Origin: an uncultured Gammaproteobacteria bacterium
GTDB taxonomy: Bacteria; Pseudomonadota; Gammaproteobacteria; Pseudomonadales; Pseudohongiellaceae
Assembly (NCBI GenBank): GCA_913060695.1
Contig: CAJXUA010000004.1
Coordinates: forward strand, 84,612-148,611
Length of the DNA: 64,000 bases
Reading direction: 5' to 3'
The notes beneath the pieces are model-generated. The model was not told the origin of the DNA and did not search any database. It was given only the letters and a program-made list of their open reading frames with translations. A program made the position numbers and the translations under genes. This document shows positions 24,757 to 51,081 of the stretch, piece by piece (position 1 is the stretch's first letter; each line of letters starts with the position of its first letter).

Positions 24757-25437
24757 TTACAGGAGGCTGGGTTTCGGATTGAAATAATGTGTCCCATTGG
24801 AACATGCCAGAATCTGAGTTACGAGGAGCTGATAATCGTCCTCATTGCCGACAAGGTCAATCTCGGCACAATTCACAATTAGGAGTGGACTCTTATCGTA
24901 ATAGTGGAAGAAGTCCGTGTAGGCGACGTTCAACCGTTCGAGGTAGTCGCTGTGAATATTTTGTTCTGCGTCGATACCGCGCTTCTGGATGCGCTCCATC
25001 AGGACATCCGCAGGTGCCTGCAGATAAACCACCAGATCGGGCACGGGGGCGTCGATGGTCAGGTGATTGTAGACCTGTTGATAGAGCGCGAACTCGTCGG
25101 CGTCCAGATTCTGTCGGGCGAAAAGAGGATCTTTGTCGATCAGGAAATCCGCTACGCGTACCTGCTCGAATAGATCGTCTTGGCGTAGATCCTGAATCTG
25201 GCGCGAGCGCTGAAACAGGAAGAACAATTGGGTGGCCAGGGCATTGCGCTTGGGGTCGTGATAGAAGCGCTCGAGGAAGGGGTTCTCTTCGGGTAGCTCT
25301 AGCAGTGTATCGTAGTGGAAAGTCTCGGCGAGGCGCTTCGTTAGGCTGGTTTTGCCAACCCCAATAGGACCCTCCACGGCGATAAATCGCGGCGCAGTTA
25401 TGGTGGGTTGCTGTGCGGAAATAGGACTTGCTTTCAC
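24757..25437 (-). CDS. Deoxynucleoside kinase family protein
   Basis: It has the P-loop VEGPIGVGKTSL and a dNK-like FLFQR/DFLI core. There is a 4-nt overlap with the pcnB stop. Confidence 0.8.
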   Translation of the reverse strand: MKASPISAQQPTITAPRFIAVEGPIGVGKTSLTKRLAETFHYDTLLELPEENPFLERFYHDPKRNALATQLFFLFQRSRQIQDLRQDDLFEQVRVADFLIDKDPLFARQNLDADEFALYQQVYNHLTIDAPVPDLVVYLQAPADVLMERIQKRGIDAEQNIHSDYLERLNVAYTDFFHYYDKSPLLIVNCAEIDLVGNEDDYQLLVTQILACSNGTHYFNPKPSLL

Positions 25438-26918
25438 GCCTTGTCACCTGCCTCGCTGGGGGGCTTGCGATTGGGTTTGCGGCGGCGTCGGCGCTTGGTG
25501 CCACCGCCTTTACCTAAACCTTCGAGCATTTGCTCTCGTTGGTTTTTATCAGCAATCTGGAAATCAGTCCACCACTGACCGATACCGCCGAGCTCCTCGC
25601 CTGCTTCTTCGCGAAGTAACAAGAAGTCATAACCGGCACGGAAACGGGGGTGGTCAAATACAGTCTCGGCGGCGCGGCGAGTCCGCACTTGTAAGCGTAG
25701 CTGTAACTCCCAAATCTCTCGAGTCGCGATGGAGAAGCGCTTCGGAATTGCCGTGATCTTGATCTGTTTCAGGATGACTTGATTCGCAGCCTCCTGCTGT
25801 TCTGGCAGGGTCGGTAACTTGCCATCGAGACTCTTTTGCAACTGCTTCTGCAAGGGAGCCCACAGAATGGCCCCATACAAGAATGCGGGAGTGACTGTTT
25901 TGCCTTGGGCGAGACGGTGATCGGTATTGCGCATCGCAAGAGTTAGGAGTTTTGCCTCTGGCGTTTGTGGATCTTTCGTGCAGGCCATAGCGGCGGGGAA
26001 CAGCACCTCACCAATCTTAAACTGACGCAATAACTCAAAGGTCTTCTCGGCCTGACCGCCAGTTAGCAGTTTCAATGTCTCGTCGAAGATGCGTGCCGGT
26101 GAGATTGATTCCAGTAAAGGAGCCAATTCATTCATCGGTGCGCGGGTATTCTTCTCGATGTCGAAACCGAGTTTGGCGGCGAAACGCACTGCGCGCAGCA
26201 GGCGTACCGGGTCTTCTCTGTAGCGAGTGGCTGGGTCGCCGATCATGCGCAAGAGTCGGTTCTCGATGTCTTGAAGGCCGTTTGCAAAATCGATAATGCG
26301 GAAACCATCGATCGTGTAATAGAGGGCATTCGCAGTGAAATCGCGACGTACTGCGTCGTCATTGATGTTGCCGTAAACGTTGTCGCGCAGGATCATGCCG
26401 GCGCTGGAGTGTGCGGAGTCTAGCCCCTTGATGCTGCGATTTGTTGTGTTCTCTTTGAATTCATTCTCAGGCGCGTGATGCGCGCGGAAGGTGGTGACTT
26501 CGATGATCTCGCGCCCGAAACGCAGGTGAATGATCTTAAAGCGCCGGCCTATAATCATGGCATTGCGGAACAGTTGCTTGATCTGCTCAGGGGTGGCATT
26601 GGTCGAAATATCGAAGTCTTTTGGCTTGTCGCCAAGAAGGAGGTCACGCACTCCTCCGCCTACTAGAAACGCGTGATAGCCGGCATCGTTGAGGCGATAG
26701 AGTACTTTCACAGCATTCGGAGAAATGCTCTTGCGGGAGATGCAATGGTCTTCGCGCTCAATGACATCCGCATCGGAAAGATCGAGGTCGCTCAAACTGG
26801 CACGGCCAGCCGAAGGGTTTCCACGCGCCTGGTCAGGCTTGGAAATGTGGGGCTCGTCCTGGGGCGTTGCCGCCTTGTTACGTTTGCCGAAGAGCGCTTT
26901 GCTTAGCTTTCTTAACAT
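25434..26918 (-). CDS. pcnB: Poly(A) polymerase I
   Basis: It has the nucleotidyltransferase head LVGGGVRDLLLG...DFDI and a basic C-terminal tail. Confidence 0.93.
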   Translation of the reverse strand: MLRKLSKALFGKRNKAATPQDEPHISKPDQARGNPSAGRASLSDLDLSDADVIEREDHCISRKSISPNAVKVLYRLNDAGYHAFLVGGGVRDLLLGDKPKDFDISTNATPEQIKQLFRNAMIIGRRFKIIHLRFGREIIEVTTFRAHHAPENEFKENTTNRSIKGLDSAHSSAGMILRDNVYGNINDDAVRRDFTANALYYTIDGFRIIDFANGLQDIENRLLRMIGDPATRYREDPVRLLRAVRFAAKLGFDIEKNTRAPMNELAPLLESISPARIFDETLKLLTGGQAEKTFELLRQFKIGEVLFPAAMACTKDPQTPEAKLLTLAMRNTDHRLAQGKTVTPAFLYGAILWAPLQKQLQKSLDGKLPTLPEQQEAANQVILKQIKITAIPKRFSIATREIWELQLRLQVRTRRAAETVFDHPRFRAGYDFLLLREEAGEELGGIGQWWTDFQIADKNQREQMLEGLGKGGGTKRRRRRKPNRKPPSEAGDKA

Positions 26919-27065
26919 CTAAATTTAGGATCCATTGACCGCAGCCACTTCGCCATCGATACACCATTATAGGGGCATGCGTGCGAGCACAACGTGATTC
27001 ATCATTAAAACTAATGGGAATGGTGCGGGATAATACACCGAAACAAGGGAAATTAGCAGGAGGAA

Positions 27066-27316
27066 ATGCTTTGGGGGGCGAGTACAGCCCCCCCGCAAGG
27101 AAGGTAATTTAGTTTTATTATTCTTATTAGACTAATCAGGCACCAAATACAGCACCGCAAAGCATTTTTTTATGAACCAGTACCGCCAGTTAGATAACAA
27201 ATCGGTTCTCTACGCACTGACAATCTACTTCTTTATTGTTGTTTTTCGTTGCACTCACAATGTAGTGCTATTTTTATTTTTATTGGCTTTCGTTGTTATT
27301 ATTTATTGTTATTGTG
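27066..27316 (-). ncRNA. crcZ: Candidate CrcZ-like Hfq/Crc-sequestering sRNA
   Basis: It lies downstream of a minus-strand sigma-54 promoter. Four clusters of AAnAAnAA motifs are present, for example AAUAACAAUAAAUAAUAACAA, AAUAAAAAUAAAAAUA, AAAAACAACAAUAAAGAA and AAUAAGAAUAAUAAAA. It ends at the GGGGGGC/GCCCCCC hairpin (27073-27094). Its position between cbrB and pcnB matches Pseudomonas. The 3' end is uncertain because there is no U-tract. Confidence 0.55.
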
Positions 27317-27326
27317 TCGTACATAG

Positions 27327-27342
27327 AGCATTAACCGTGCCA
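27327..27342 (-). promoter_or_regulatory. Sigma-54 (-24/-12) promoter
   Basis: The minus strand reads TGGCACGGTTAATGCT. The -24 half TGGCACG is perfect, and the GC of the -12 element is at the canonical spacing. Confidence 0.65.
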
Positions 27343-27415
27343 GTATGGTCAAGTTGAATAAAAACAATGACTTATATTTTTATTTCAAAAATATGACAAC
27401 TTGGAACTGGTACTG

Positions 27416-27462
27416 TGTTACTTAAAATCTCTAATGCCGTGGGTAGATGGGTATCGGTAACA
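27416..27462. promoter_or_regulatory. Candidate CbrB upstream activating sequence (TGTTAC-N35-GTAACA)
   Basis: Perfect hexamer half-sites identical to those I recall for Pseudomonas CbrB are centred about 120 nt upstream of the predicted start. The spacer is longer than the recalled N12-N14. An A/T-rich segment (27351-27405) lies between it and the promoter. Confidence 0.45.
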
Positions 27463-27485
27463 CTTTAGGCTTTGATGAATTTGTC

Positions 27486-27501
27486 TGTGATTACTATCAC
27501 A
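27486..27501. promoter_or_regulatory. Perfect palindrome TGTGAT-TACT-ATCACA (unknown factor site)
   Basis: Read directly. It lies between the cbrB stop and the candidate UAS. Confidence 0.3.
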
Positions 27502-27571
27502 AATAATGTTGATTTCGGCCTATATAGCCGCGGGCCAAAACCGAAGGCTATAAAAGCGGCTTGCTAAGTAA

Positions 27572-28969
27572 CTAGGCTTGTTTTTTCTTGCGCGGCAGTC
27601 CGAAGCGTTGACGACGCTCCCATAGGCATTTGCGGCTGATGCCCAGCTTGCGAGCAAGTTGAGTCTCATTCATTTGGTCTTGATGCTCCAGCACGAAGTG
27701 CTGGAAGTAGTCCTCTAGGGATAGTTCTTCGACTGAGTCGTCTTGAGGAGGGGTATGGTGCAGAGCTGTACGTTCATTCAGGGGGCGTAGCTGGGCTTTG
27801 AGGCTGGTATCGATAGCCAGTAGCTCTTCACCGATAATCTCGGACTCAGCCAGTACCACAGCGCGCTCTATGGCGTTTTCGAGTTCGCGCACATTGCCTG
27901 GCCATGGATAGGAAGCGATCGCTTGAGTCGCCTCTGAGCTGAATTTGAGCATCGGCGATTTGAGGCGTTTGCAGGTGCGGTCGAGAATGGCATCGGCGAG
28001 TTCGAGGATGTCATTGCCACGCTCTTTGAGCGGAGGAATGATTAGCGTCATCACGTTGATGCGGTAATACAAGTCTTCGCGGAAGTCGCCGTCGATTACT
28101 AGTTGCTTGAGATCACGGTGTGTTGCAACGACCAGGCGTACATCTACTTTTTTGGATTGCACGGAGCCGACTTTGCGAATTTCGTTTTCCTGCAGCACTC
28201 GCAATAGGCGGGCTTGAGCCTCTAGAGGCAATTCGCCTATCTCGTCTAAGAACAGTGTGCTGCCACTGGCGGCCTCGACTAGTCCTGTGCGGTTCGCGGT
28301 AGCGCCGGTAAAGGCACCTTTCTCGTGGCCGAAGAGTTCGGACTCGATGAGATTCTCTGGAATCGCAGCGCAATTGACCGAGATCATCTCTGACTCGTTA
28401 CGATCGCTTAGTTTATGTATTGCGCGCGCTACAAGCTCTTTGCCCGTTCCGGACTCGCCATTGATAAGCACTGTAGAGTTTGTCATCGCCACTTTGCGGA
28501 TGCGCCGGAACAGTTCCATCATCTGTGGACAGCTGCCGATCATGCCATACACGGGAGGCTCGGGCGGTGGCAGGGGTTTTTCTTGTGCTGCCTTGCGGCT
28601 GGCGCTTTCCTGCACTATACGACCAACCGTCTCTATCATCTCCTCGTGCTCGAAGGGCTTAGAGATATAGTCCACGGCTCCCATCTTCATCGAATCGATG
28701 GCGGAGCGCAGGCTAGAGTAGCTGGTCATGATAAGCACTGGTGTTTTGGTGGCCTTAATGAGGTCGGTGCCGGGTGCGCCGGGCAGGCGCAGGTCGCTCA
28801 CAACGATGTCGAAATCGTCCATATTGTGCTGCTCGATAGCCTCTCTAACACTCCCGGCTTCTTCGACGGAATAGTTGTGGCGTTCCAGCAGGCGTCGTAG
28901 CGCAGTGCGTATGACTTGCTCATCTTCAACTACTAATACTTTGTTCTGCACTGTCATCATGTTACTCAA
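27572..28969 (-). CDS. cbrB: Sigma-54-dependent response regulator, CbrB-like (NtrC family)
   Basis: It has a REC domain (DIVVSDLRLPG), an AAA+ domain (GESGTGKE, ESELFGHEKGAFTGA) and a C-terminal Fis HTH. It lies downstream of the SSS-fused kinase. Confidence 0.8.
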   Translation of the reverse strand: MSNMMTVQNKVLVVEDEQVIRTALRRLLERHNYSVEEAGSVREAIEQHNMDDFDIVVSDLRLPGAPGTDLIKATKTPVLIMTSYSSLRSAIDSMKMGAVDYISKPFEHEEMIETVGRIVQESASRKAAQEKPLPPPEPPVYGMIGSCPQMMELFRRIRKVAMTNSTVLINGESGTGKELVARAIHKLSDRNESEMISVNCAAIPENLIESELFGHEKGAFTGATANRTGLVEAASGSTLFLDEIGELPLEAQARLLRVLQENEIRKVGSVQSKKVDVRLVVATHRDLKQLVIDGDFREDLYYRINVMTLIIPPLKERGNDILELADAILDRTCKRLKSPMLKFSSEATQAIASYPWPGNVRELENAIERAVVLAESEIIGEELLAIDTSLKAQLRPLNERTALHHTPPQDDSVEELSLEDYFQHFVLEHQDQMNETQLARKLGISRKCLWERRQRFGLPRKKKQA

Positions 28970-29006: not shown

Positions 29007-31952
29007 CTAGATCGCCTTAGTGAGTGATGCGTCCTTGATATTCGGTCCATCATAGCAGGGAAAAGTAAGAATTACTCGTGTGCCCGGATTCTCTTTCCTG
29101 TTAGATGCGCTGATTATATCAATATGTCCATCTAGGTTTTCAACTATGCTGTAGACCAATGAAAGACCAAGCCCCGTGCCTTCTCCAGGCTCTTTGGTGG
29201 TAAAGAACGGGTCGAATATTTGGTCTCGAATTTCCTCAGGAATGCCACTGCCCTCATCGGTTACCGAAATCTGTACGGAGCCGGATACGAGCTTGGAGGA
29301 TAGGGTGATCTTGCTATCTACGGGGCTGGCATCGTGGGCGTTATTGAGTAAGTTGACTAAGACTTGTAATAGGCGTTGTGAGTCTCCTAGTACCTGTAGT
29401 CCCGCCTTGCAGTTCACCACGTACTTAATTTCTTTGCGTTTCTTGTCTAGTGAGATCAGCGCGATCGCCTCGTTGACGCACTCTTCTACAGTCACGATCT
29501 CGCTATTATGATCCGATTTATTGCTGCCGCTGTGTGCGAAATTGACTAGCGACTGCACGATGCGGGAAGTGCGGTCTGTCTGCTCGATGATCTGGCGCGC
29601 CATTTCGCGTAGCTCATCGTTATTGGTCTCATCGCGAATATTCTGTGCCAGGCAGGCGATGCCGGTGATTGGGTTGCCGATCTCGTGGGCGACTCCAGCG
29701 GCCAAGCGCCCAATAGAGGCGAGGCGTTCGCTGTGGGTAAGTTCTTCCTCGAGTAGCTCCGTCTCGGTGAGGTCTTCTAGGAGGATGACCACGCCGTCCT
29801 GCTTGATCTTATGGGCCGCAGACTTCTCGATGATGGCTTTGTGTAGGCTGATAAAGCGGCGCTTACTTTTAATCTGCACCACGCGTTTATGGGCATGGGC
29901 GGTTTCGCCAACCGTGAAATCGTGGATAAGTGTCGCCCAGGGTTCCGCGATCTCACTCAGCTGAGAGCCAAGCACCTCCTGGCTGGGGATGCCGGTGAGT
30001 TGAGACATCGCGTGGTTCCACATCACGATCTGATTCTGTTCACCTAGTGAGCACACGCCTAAAGGCAGCTCTAGCAACACCTGCCGATGATAACGGCGCA
30101 GATTGTCTAGGTCCTCGGCCATACCGGACAGGTTGCTACGATAGGCCTCGATGCGGCTCTCGATGACATCGACGTCCGTGGACCCATGTTCAGACTCGAT
30201 AGTGAACGGAAGGAAGCGATCGATGAGATCGTGGGCGATAGACGGCCCTAATAGGCCGGAAAGATTCGCCTCTAGGCGCCCACGTAATAGACGCATATTG
30301 TGGGGGCGTTTTTCTTGTCGATTGATATGGAGATCTCGTAATGCCTGCAACACTTCCCGCGTCGCGGTGCGTTCGCCCAATGGCTTAGTGAGCTTGGCGA
30401 TGAAGTCATCGGGAGTCTTGGCGACTAGCCCAGTACGATTGCGACGACGGATCGTATCGATCGCGCAGACATCCGCGGAGGCACGTTCTTCGGCAGAGGT
30501 GCGTGTCCAAAAAGATATCGCGACGAATAGAATGATATTGCACACCAGCGACATCGCGACGATCTCGCGAGTATTGATCGATTCGAAGGCGAGAAAATTG
30601 AAGCCCGTTAGAACTGGCAACATCAAGAATAGGAACCAGATGGTGACACCGGCCAGAAGACCCACGATGAAGCCTTTCTTGTTTCCTCGGGGCCAATACA
30701 GCAAGGCGATGATGCTGGGCAGAAATTGCAGGCTCGCGATATAAGAGACATTGCCAATCGCCCTAACGCTGAGCTTGTCATCGGGGATGTAGTAGAAGAG
30801 AAAGCCGATCCAGATTAGCGCGGTAATTAGGGCGCGTCGGCGCCACAGTAGCCAGCGGTAGATGTCGTTGCGTGCGGTAGGTTGGTAGAGCGGCAGGATT
30901 AGGTGGTTCAGGCACATATTCGATAGCGCCAGAGTGATCACAATGATCAAGCCGCTGGCTGCAGAGAGTCCGCCAAGAAAGCCCACTGCGGTCATAAAAC
31001 CAGAGCCGTAGTCCGCACCTAGGCTGACAGGGTAAAACTCCAGTGGCGCAGTTGAGCCGATCTTCAGGCCCGCCCAGAGGATCGGGAATACTGGCAGACT
31101 AAGCAGTAGGAAGTACAAGGGCAGTGCCCAACTGGCGAGGGTCAATGCCTTGGGGTCTTTGTTTTCGTTGAAGATCATATAGAACATGTGCGGGCTAGCG
31201 ACAGCCGCTGTGAAGAACAAGATCGCAGTGATGTGGAAGGATCCTGGTGCGTCTGGCTCTTTGATGCCGGCAAGGAGTTCGGGTTGGGTCTGCAGCCACA
31301 GATCGAGTTCGGCGAAGCCGCCGAATCCTTGATAAACAGCGAAGAGACCAAGGCCTAGCATCGCGACTAGTTTGACGAGGGATTCGAAGGCGATAGCCAT
31401 CACCAGTCCTTCGTGTTTCTCGCGCCCCGCGCCTCGGCCGGTACCGAAGAAGATGGCGAACACCGTGATCATCACGCAGAAGGACGCAGCCAAGGTGGTC
31501 TGTGAGACCTCGGGGGCCATGATGGCCACGCTATTTGAGACAGCTTGAATCTGCAGTGACAGCAGAGGAGTGACCCCCAGCAGCATCACGATTGTAGTCA
31601 GGGTGCCAGCCACTGGGCTGCGGTAACGAAAGGCCAATAGGTCTGCCAGTGAGCTAAGCTGGTAGCTGCGGGTGATGTCGAGAATTGGGCGCAGCATAAG
31701 GGGCGAGAATAGGAAGGCTAGGGAGATGCCGATGAACGGTGCGAGATAACCGTATCCATCTCTGAAGGCGTTGGCCGTGGCTGAGAAATAGGACCAAACG
31801 CTCGCGAAAACGCCAAGTGCTAACACATACACTATAGGGTGGCGGGTGACTTTCTGCGGTATCCAGCCTTTGTCGGTCGCAAGAGCGACACCGAATAAGA
31901 CCCCGATATAAATCATACCCAGGACTATCAAATTACTCAGGTCAAAGATCAT
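29007..31952 (-). CDS. cbrA: Hybrid sensor histidine kinase with N-terminal sodium:solute-symporter (SLC5) domain, CbrA-like
   Basis: About 13 TM helices form an SSS-like N-terminal half. This is followed by a PAS-like segment, the H-box [12 protein letters not shown] and the ATPase G-box GTGLGLS. The protein is 981 aa. Confidence 0.85.
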
Positions 31953-49524: not shown

Positions 49525-51081
49525 CTAGTCGAGTCTTTTGCGCTCGTTCGAAGGCGGAATAGCCAAGGATTCTCGATACTTGGCAATCGTTCGGCGTGCT
49601 ACGTTGATGCCTTGGTCTTCGAGTAACTTCGTAATTTTGCTGTCGCTTAGCGGCTTGCGTGTGTTCTCTGCGGCAACCAATTTCTTGATGAGGGCCCGGA
49701 TTGCCGTAGAGGAGCATTCGCCGCCACCGGCCGTACTGACATGGCTTGAGAAGAAATACTTCAGTTCGAAGATGCCCTTGGGGGTGTGCATATACTTCTG
49801 CGTTGTCACTCGCGAGATAGTGGACTCATGCATACTCACCGCCTCGGCGATATCGTGCAGCACGAGGGGTTTCATCGCCTCTTCGCCGTATTCGAAAAAG
49901 CCCTTCTGGTGCTCCACGATGCGTGTTGCCACCTTCATAAGGGTCTCGTTGCGACTCTGCAGACTCTTGATAAACCAACGTGCCTCCTGCAGGTTGTCGC
50001 GCAGATAATTATTGTCGGAGCTATTGTCAGCGCGCCGTACCAGCGAGGCGTAACCGGGGTTGATGCGAATCTTAGGCGCGGTTTCGGGGTTGAGCTCGAC
50101 GAGCCAGCGGCCGGTAGTGCTGTCTTTAGTGACGATGACATCGGGTACGATGTAACTGGTTGACGGAGGAGCAATATCCGAACCTGGGCGTGGATTGAGT
50201 TGTTCGATTACGGCGATGGCGTCGCGAAGCTCAGGCTCTTTGAGGCGTGTGAGGCGCATTAATTGTGCGTAGTCACGGTTGCCTAGCAATTGGAGGTGGT
50301 CTTTCACCACGATCTTGGCGTGTTTGACGGCGGTGGTTAGTAAGTCGTTCTCGAACTGCTGCAGTTGGATCAACAGGCACTCGGCAAGATCGCGATAACC
50401 GACGCCCACGGGATCGAATTGCTGGATGCGATGTAGCACTGCAACTACTTCGTCAGGGTCGATATCTAGCGAGCGGATAAGACTTGCGTGTATCGCATCG
50501 ATGCTAACGGTAAGCATGCCGTTGGGGTCGATGGCATCGATCAGGGCAAGGCCTATGAGGCGATCGGCGTCGGACATCGGAGTGAGATTCAGTTGCCACA
50601 TCAGGTGGTCTTGTAGGCTTTCGGTCACGCTATTACGTGATTCGAAATCCATGCTGTCGCCTTCGCCAGAGCCAGACCCGGAGCCTCCGGTGGTGTAAGT
50701 GCTTTGGTAGATGTCGTCCCAGCTACTATCAACAGACAGATCCTGGGGGATGCTCTCTTCCCAGCGATTGTCGTCGCCGTCGCTATCACTGCTGGCGCTA
50801 TATTCGGAGTTGTCTTTACTATCTTTGCTGGAGATTACGCGGTCGGCACTAAACTCGTCGCTAGAGCTGCTACTTTCGCTATTGGTCTCTGCTGCAGCGT
50901 CTTCTTTGGCATGGAAATCGTCGAGGCCTTCATCCAGTTCGAGCATGGGATTAGATTCGAGTGCTGAATGGATTTCTTGCTGAAGATCGAGAGTGGAGAG
51001 CTGAAGTAGGCGGATGGCTTGCTGCAGCTGGGGGGTCATGGTCAGTTGCTGACCCATCTTTAGCTGAAGCGATAATTTCAT
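49525..51081 (-). CDS. rpoN: RNA polymerase sigma-54 factor
   Basis: It has a Gln/Leu-rich region I, an acidic region II and the RpoN box ARRTIAKYR. Confidence 0.96.

Follow-up and report, generated by a model that had tools for sequence, protein, structure and literature searches.

The minus strand of the cbrB-pcnB gap in the analysed window (64 kb, the whole stretch of 64,000 nt taken from contig CAJXUA010000004.1) most probably carries crcZ of a Pseudohongiellaceae-type gammaproteobacterium, encoding a compact homologue of the CrcZ RNA of Pseudomonas and Azotobacter. On comparative sequence evidence this reading was given a probability of about 0.82. The CrcZ of PAO1 is 407 nt long; its gene occupies the spacer between cbrB and pcnB, and CbrB and IHF take part in its transcription from an RpoN promoter (PMC8395346). 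The gap in the window (26919-27571, 653 bp) showed, along the minus strand, an A+T-rich spacer, activator half-sites, the promoter, the RNA and a CU-rich tail in that order. For comparison, a scan with the regulator protein using one genome per species produced 80 related loci with 75-99% identity, and the RNA was present in one copy per locus in 77 of these 80 Pseudohongiellaceae-type genomes. Aligned with its relatives, as an initial annotation made from the sequence alone had suggested, the spacer was found to keep the promoter, the A-rich blocks and the stems, the latter with compensatory changes.

RNA extent, A-rich blocks and structure

The features of the predicted RNA are as follows.

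27059-27316, minus: CrcZ-type small RNA gene of about 255 nt, start from the promoter and the Rfam match, 3' end uncertain
27292-27313, minus: A-rich block 1, two abutting (AAN)4 runs, by motif scan
27267-27284, minus: A-rich block 2, (AAN)5 (27284-27270) plus AGC, giving six A-R-N triplets, by motif scan
27232-27246, minus: A-rich block 3, (AAN)5, by motif scan
27114-27128, minus: A-rich block 4, (AAN)5, by motif scan
27251-27268, minus: stem-loop 1, GCACUA...GAGUGC, helix 1 of the window-like subfamily with 94% of cells paired
27174-27231, minus: long central stem-loop GAAGUAGAUUGUCAGU / ACUGGCGGUACUGGUUC, inner hairpin 27210-27193, helices 2 and 3
27139-27156, minus: G-U-rich stem-loop GGUGCUG-UAUU-UGGUGCC, helix 5, 98.7% paired with one-sided changes only
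27064-27167, minus: enclosing helix AAAUGCUUUG (27167-27158) / CAAAGCAUUU (27073-27064), helix 4
27073-27094, minus: G+C-rich terminal hairpin GGGGGGC-UGUACUC-GCCCCCC (27093-27073) with an extra G at 27094

The nhmmer search with the family profile placed the RNA at 27316-27063 with an E-value of 5e-48 as a single copy in the window, and neither the 64-kb window nor any of the fetched loci yielded a second, CrcY/CrcX-like copy. The start was set at 27316/27315 because of the position of the promoter and the start of the Rfam match; the start had initially been predicted near 27316 and the Rfam CrcZ match began one base away at 27315. The 3' end of the RNA reaches at least to 27073, where the hairpin ends, and probably falls at 27064-27040.

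The four A-rich blocks agreed within 1-3 nt with the four AAnAAnAA clusters of the initial annotation, and its other coordinates were likewise accurate within this margin. The motif AANAANAA occurred 50 times in the window compared to 23.6 +/- 5.2 times in shuffled sequences, none of the 100 shuffles reaching 50, and 13 of the 50 matches were on the minus strand within 27115-27313 where they overlapped and lay in the four blocks. All three (AAN)≥5 runs of the window on both strands were inside this RNA. Alignment of 73 homologues showed that triplet positions 1 and 2 were A in 92% (entropy 0.24 bit) while the entropy of position 3 was 1.01 bit. One triplet position-2 column alternated between A and G, and the invariant columns of the alignment were almost entirely adenines of the AAN blocks. 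As judged from the alignment, this conservation of triplet phase is what an RNA bound by the distal face of Hfq would be expected to show; an A-R-N rule has been described for that face (PMC8395346). In the consensus structure, blocks 1-3 were not part of any helix and block 4 was in the loop of a weak one. Separately, locus L073 (5750-5781) was observed to contain an internal duplication of approximately 21 nt comprising the second A-rich block and the start of the next stem (AAUAAUAAUAAAAGUGGCACC), which shows a route by which motif copies are added to such RNAs.

For the 73 sequences taken together, RNAalifold produced almost no consensus structure because the subfamilies were misaligned in the middle, and two subfamilies were therefore analysed apart. 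For the 22 window-like sequences, 94% of cells were paired compared to 43-51% when the partners were slid, and both partners had changed in 15 pairs, mostly in the stem-loop at 27231-27174, compared to 6.9 +/- 1.6 pairs in shuffles (none of 500 reaching 15). For the 35 sequences of the distant subfamily, 89% of cells were paired compared to 41-52% when slid, with 18 double-change pairs against 11.7 +/- 1.7 in shuffles (0 of 500). The fold of the single sequence had no clear advantage over shuffles (z = -1.58); since the single-sequence energy was unconvincing, the case for structure rests on covariation. Within the RNA, stem-loop 1 had a counterpart in the distant subfamily, helix 2, which was 99% paired, and both arms of the GCACU/AGUGC stem named in the initial annotation were located, GCACU at 27268-27264 and AGUGC at 27255-27251. 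Helices 2 and 3 carried changes on both sides with pairing kept in 11 of their 21 pairs in the window-like subfamily. The 10-bp helix 4, which surrounds block 4 and the hairpin, was 95% paired with one-sided (U-A/U-G) changes only and is plausible on this comparison. The stem of the terminal hairpin varied in a compensatory manner across the family as GGGGGGC/GCCCCCC, GGGGGGU/ACCCCCC, GGGGGUG/CACCCCC and GGGAGAU/AUCUCCC.

That several helices show such compensatory changes indicates selection for RNA structure and makes it hardly credible that the gap holds no RNA gene and is instead AT-rich regulatory DNA or a gene for a small protein. The G+C content does fall to 34-39% in the gap and ORFs of 43-61 amino acids exist, as such a reading would have it, but each frame of the sense strand is interrupted by 4-10 stops, and the triplet pattern, which lies downstream of a conserved promoter, is strand-specific. 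The small-protein reading was rejected, the longest open stretches differing in strand and frame between homologues. The gap had been described at the outset as having no credible ORF; no ORFs other than those of 43-61 amino acids were found and none was conserved in strand and frame among the 73 homologues.

Control region and proposed mechanism

Upstream of the predicted start, the following elements were identified.

27327-27342, minus: sigma-54 (-24/-12) promoter TGGCACGGTTAATGCT, by sequence match
27457-27462, minus: TGTTAC, predicted forward half-site F1 of the CbrB upstream activating sequence, by consensus match
27416-27421, minus: GTAACA, predicted reverse half-site R2 of the CbrB upstream activating sequence, by consensus match
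27362-27374, minus: putative IHF-like block TAAGTCATTGTTT, from conserved columns of a 77-sequence alignment

The element TGGCACGGTTAATGCT was the sole exact match to TGGCAC-N6-TGCW in the 64-kb window on both strands and had the form TGGCAC-N5-ATGCT at 27342-27327, exactly where a near-consensus -24/-12 promoter had been annotated on the minus strand. In 76 of the 80 loci, the pattern TGGCAC-N6-TGC followed the regulator gene at a distance of 130-500 nt. The four other loci included contigs ending before the spacer (L021, L043) and RNA-bearing loci without a match to the pattern.

For CbrB binding, experiments have yielded the consensus TGTTAC-N12-14-GTAACA-N15-19-GTAACA, whose subsites are named F1, R1 and R2; conservation of two of them at the correct spacing is reported to be enough (PMC8871633, PMC6296734). 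The F1-R2 spacing was 35 nt in the window and 34-35 nt in 74 of 77 loci, within the 33-39 nt that the consensus permits. TGTTAC was at -119 to -121 and GTAACA at -79/-80 from the T of TGGCAC, again in 74 of 77 loci, and the block between F1 and R2 (G-TAC-C...CTACCCA) was conserved in the 77-sequence alignment. The CbrB half-sites thus add support from upstream of the promoter beyond the features listed in the initial annotation.

Between the activator sites and the promoter, the IHF-like block was conserved as TAA-N4-TTG(T/A)T. Comparison of TAAGTCATTGTTT with YAANNNNYTGATW, the reverse-complement IHF consensus, showed agreement at 8 of 9 specified positions. IHF is known to aid crcZ transcription in Pseudomonas (PMC8395346).

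In addition, a perfect CRP/Vfr-type palindrome, TGTGA-N6-TCACA, was found at 27488-27503 (minus), approximately 160 nt upstream of the sigma-54 promoter. Its half-sites were kept at the same position in five close relatives (L002, L003, L005, L009 and L040) with variation in the central 6 nt, while L024 had a palindrome of this type at another position and the remaining family members had none. Through this palindrome, crcZ or the end of cbrB may receive an additional input peculiar to the lineage.

By its sequence elements, the locus would work as follows. Phosphorylated CbrB would bind TGTTAC/GTAACA approximately 100-145 bp upstream of the start, and an IHF-type bend would bring it to the sigma-54 RNA polymerase at -24/-12, with transcription predicted to begin near 27316. 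As the comparative analysis showed, the RNA presents four single-stranded (AAN)4-6 blocks spaced by covariation-supported stems, and by analogy with CrcZ each block could occupy the distal face of one Hfq hexamer. When CbrAB is active on poor carbon sources, the RNA would, as CrcZ does, titrate Hfq, possibly together with Crc, off A-rich sites of catabolic mRNAs, and translational repression of these mRNAs would be relieved. The 3' end may be formed at or shortly after the G+C hairpin.

Likeness to CrcZ and the Rfam evidence

Compared to CrcZ of P. aeruginosa, P. putida and Azotobacter vinelandii (RF01675), the candidate comes from a host of Pseudohongiellaceae and not of Pseudomonadaceae, has the same position between cbrB and pcnB and is on the same strand as both. 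The RpoN-type promoter of CrcZ is matched by sequence in the -24/-12 element and its upstream TGTTAC/GTAACA half-sites by the half-sites found here, and its IHF site before the promoter may have a counterpart in the IHF-like block. CrcZ has several single-stranded AANAANAA blocks and the candidate has four A-rich blocks; in both, a 3' G+C hairpin is preceded by (A)UACCUU. The outer helix that surrounds the last A-rich block in the Rfam consensus of CrcZ also has an analogous helix here.

The Rfam search at gathering thresholds produced no match anywhere in the window. With E-value thresholds, CrcZ was the sole significant family in the gap, with 34.4 bits and an E-value of 2.4e-7 at 27315-27036. 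The match covered model positions 1-398 with 134 central positions reduced to 17 nt, and posterior probabilities were high in two parts, the A-rich start of the RNA and the 3' hairpin module, the latter not being A-rich. CrcZ was also the sole match at E<0.01 in seven related loci (28-37 bits; 36.9 for L031, 34.6 for L025 and 28.3 for L005). The proposal that the locus is a divergent or unannotated member of the CrcZ family was borne out to this extent, since the scan gave CrcZ only, below gathering. A score so far under gathering would explain why such loci stay unannotated. The RNA was concluded to be a true, though divergent, member of the family whose score misses the formal Rfam threshold.

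Related loci outside this set were found in a metagenome scan for the activator and promoter architecture, which returned at least 119 contigs, 107 of them with the RNA and 111 with cbrB (58-99% identical). Two metagenome loci, L197 and L205, had all three CbrB subsites and U-tract terminators and scored 87 and 73 bits with the CrcZ model, also below 95. Their CrcZ-like RNAs were at 8523-9007 in L197 and 1658-2160 in L205; in L197 the upstream gene was rdgC and pcnB was downstream. Judged by these features, the two loci bridge the short form and the Pseudomonas CrcZ. When a covariance model was built from the 5' module of this family, it gave one match in the window, with 77 bits at 27319-27219.

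Several observations weigh against the assignment to CrcZ. The Rfam score was 34.4 compared to a gathering score of 95, and the 5'-module covariance model gave only a marginal match at the CrcZ start of L197 (23.8 bits, E 0.14). The RNA is about 255 nt long, approximately 150 nt shorter than the 407-nt CrcZ of PAO1; the initial annotation had also called it shorter than the approximately 400-nt Pseudomonas CrcZ. The distance from the predicted start to the hairpin was approximately 244 nt, and across the family it was 256-315 nt measured from the promoter. Unlike in CrcZ, the middle CbrB subsite R1 is degenerate at this locus and the hairpin is not followed by a U-tract. No U-tract was found after the hairpin in the window or in approximately 36 near relatives, and a discrete 3' end is therefore not assured. 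Finally, protein-database searches with cluster and contig look-ups did not find a Crc homologue tied to Pseudohongiellaceae.

The low Rfam score of 34 bits with its 134-position deletion is also what would be expected of an independently evolved, analogous A-rich RNA whose weak match comes from low-complexity A-rich sequence. The reverse model being only marginal on a bona fide CrcZ-like locus points the same way, as do the A-rich repeats, which inflate scores (bias 13.1 in the reverse-model search). However, the Rfam alignment was strongest at the 5' end and at the 3' hairpin module, which is not A-rich, and intermediates scored 73-87 bits. The neighbours, strand, promoter type and activator half-sites at compatible spacing are all shared, and it is far less probable that all of these arose together by convergence than that they were inherited. 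An analogous origin was considered very unlikely, and descent from a common ancestor with CrcZ is the preferred reading.

With regard to other sponge RNAs, CrcZ has A-rich paralogues that depend on CbrB and RpoN and likewise sequester Hfq/Crc, namely CrcY in P. putida and P. fluorescens and CrcX in P. syringae (PMC8395346, PMC6296734). They are extra copies at other loci, whereas a single copy at the ancestral cbrB-pcnB position was found here in the 64-kb window and in each related locus. CsrB, RsmY and RsmZ follow the same logic of a two-component-driven RNA with many short unpaired motifs that titrates a global translational repressor, but they differ in presenting GGA in hairpin loops, in binding CsrA/RsmA and in not being homologous (in part PMC8395346).

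For Crc itself, tblastn with P. aeruginosa Crc (a query sequence identical to PDB 4JG3) and with E. coli Hfq gave no match in the 64-kb window. A Crc-like clade with the gene order pyrE-crc-rph was found in other lineages. The order pyrE, an ExoIII-like (Crc-like) gene and rph was observed in L081, L091, L094 and L096, with proteins 43-69% identical to P. aeruginosa Crc, while in L095 and L097 the Crc-like gene followed pyrE and rph was not seen beside it. Since the proteins in this gene order were 43-69% identical and all annotated as 'exodeoxyribonuclease III', the boundary between Crc and exonuclease III is unclear from annotation. One Crc-like branch, P0138, proved to be related to Endozoicomonadaceae.

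3' end, neighbouring genes and range of the system

The initial annotation had described the hairpin GGGGGGC-UGUACUC-GCCCCCC at 27073-27094 with no U-tract behind it, and both points held. A terminator scan made no call on the minus strand in the window. The 25 nt beyond the hairpin were almost invariant and CU-rich. Between the hairpin and pcnB, the sequence GGTGTATTAT (27030-27039, minus) with a -10-like TATTAT was observed, conserved as GTGTATYAT in 70 of 77 loci, and an invariant CTGCTA (27054-27059, minus) was located 18 nt upstream of it. Together these are probably pcnB's own promoter, overlapping the conserved post-hairpin tail. With no U-tract, a near-invariant tail and a conserved -10-like element, the tail may therefore be part of the RNA, of the pcnB promoter or of both, and some read-through into pcnB may occur.

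The missing U-tract in the window and near relatives, the almost invariant 25 nt after the hairpin and the location of pcnB on the same strand 155 nt downstream would also suit an element that is mainly a CbrB/sigma-54-driven pcnB leader. Through read-through, the poly(A) polymerase mRNA would then have the A-rich RNA as its 5' untranslated region, and pcnB would be under carbon-status and Hfq control. The crcZ-like gene of L197 also stays beside pcnB though cbrB is not adjacent there. This was judged improbable on the following grounds. A canonical hairpin with a U-tract was present in many distant members (L038, L044, L049, L063, L067, L069, L071, L073 and L079) and also in L197 and L205, and the conserved GTGTATYAT suggests a separate promoter for pcnB. 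In addition, a stable 7-bp G-C hairpin can set a 3' end by processing, and partial read-through would add to a sponge function without replacing it.

Anti-Shine-Dalgarno-like CU-rich motifs were observed on both sides of the hairpin, CCUUCC at 27099-27104 and UCCUCC at 27059-27064 (minus), and CTTCC stood directly before the hairpin in 60 of 77 loci. Internal pairing, contact with the proximal face or rim of Hfq and pairing to ribosome-binding sites were considered as roles. It is rather unlikely that the RNA is more than a free-standing sponge, either by running on into pcnB and linking carbon status to poly(A) polymerase or by an anti-Shine-Dalgarno-like base-pairing mode, or, further, that it acts through Hfq only without Crc.

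The genes beside the predicted sponge RNA are as follows.

29007-31952, minus: cbrA-like sensor kinase of 981 amino acids, with PAS, HisKA and HATPase_c at residues 620-966 (Pfam)
27572-28969, minus: cbrB-like response regulator, with Response_reg, Sigma54_activat and AAA lid (Pfam)
25434-26918, minus: pcnB, poly(A) polymerase I (TIGR01942, 505 bits), the downstream neighbour as in Pseudomonas

Residues 1-485 of the cbrA-like kinase contained approximately 12-13 hydrophobic segments, and the Pfam SSF transporter model had no match to this protein at E≤0.001. A protein with an RpoN box was encoded near 49596. An exact look-up of the window's CbrB sequence returned no record. The initial annotation had listed cbrA, cbrB and rpoN as all being in the window, and proteins of all three types were recovered by the domain searches. 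The genes were arranged on one strand in the order cbrA, cbrB, RNA and pcnB, followed by a deoxynucleoside-kinase-family gene, panB, panC and acs. This matches the cbrA-cbrB-crcZ-pcnB-...-panBC order of Pseudomonas except for the gene between pcnB and panB. At 24757-25437 (minus) this gene is of the deoxynucleoside-kinase family (PF01712, 136 bits); in Pseudomonas this place is taken by folK.

CbrAB and crcZ have been called exclusive to Pseudomonadaceae (Pseudomonas, Azotobacter) in reviews and in a regulon study (PMC6296734, PMC8871633), and this locus therefore widens the known range of the system. A literature search on CrcZ or CbrAB with Pseudohongiella, Marinobacter or Halomonas found nothing relevant. 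The result extends a known circuit to a further family and reveals no new mechanism. The whole module of sensor, regulator, activator sites, sigma-54 promoter and A-rich RNA is conserved across Pseudohongiellaceae and related OM182-type lineages, and its carriers include many environmental metagenome contigs, mostly aquatic. Other lineages hold intermediates that are likewise under the Rfam threshold, so genuine members of the family are missed by the Rfam CrcZ model or by its threshold. The 255-nt form represents a minimal conserved core of four AAN blocks, three or four stems and the 3' hairpin module, which is useful for structure-function work. Carbon catabolite control by Hfq titration can now be sought in environmentally common heterotrophs.

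Pseudohongiellaceae belong to the order Pseudomonadales in the NCBI taxonomy as a family distinct from Pseudomonadaceae. The 80 loci came from Pseudohongiella isolates, from metagenome-assembled genomes (MAGs) of Pseudohongiellaceae or OM182 type and from unclassified Pseudomonadales or Gammaproteobacteria MAGs, and the locus was present in Pseudohongiella sp. O18 (L025) and P. nitratireducens SCS-49 (L037). Finally, seven MAGs with a Pseudohongiellaceae-type locus were titled Klebsiella, Rhodoferax, Glaciecola or SAR86 (L004, L011, L013, L032, L035, L068 and L073) and are probably mislabelled bins.

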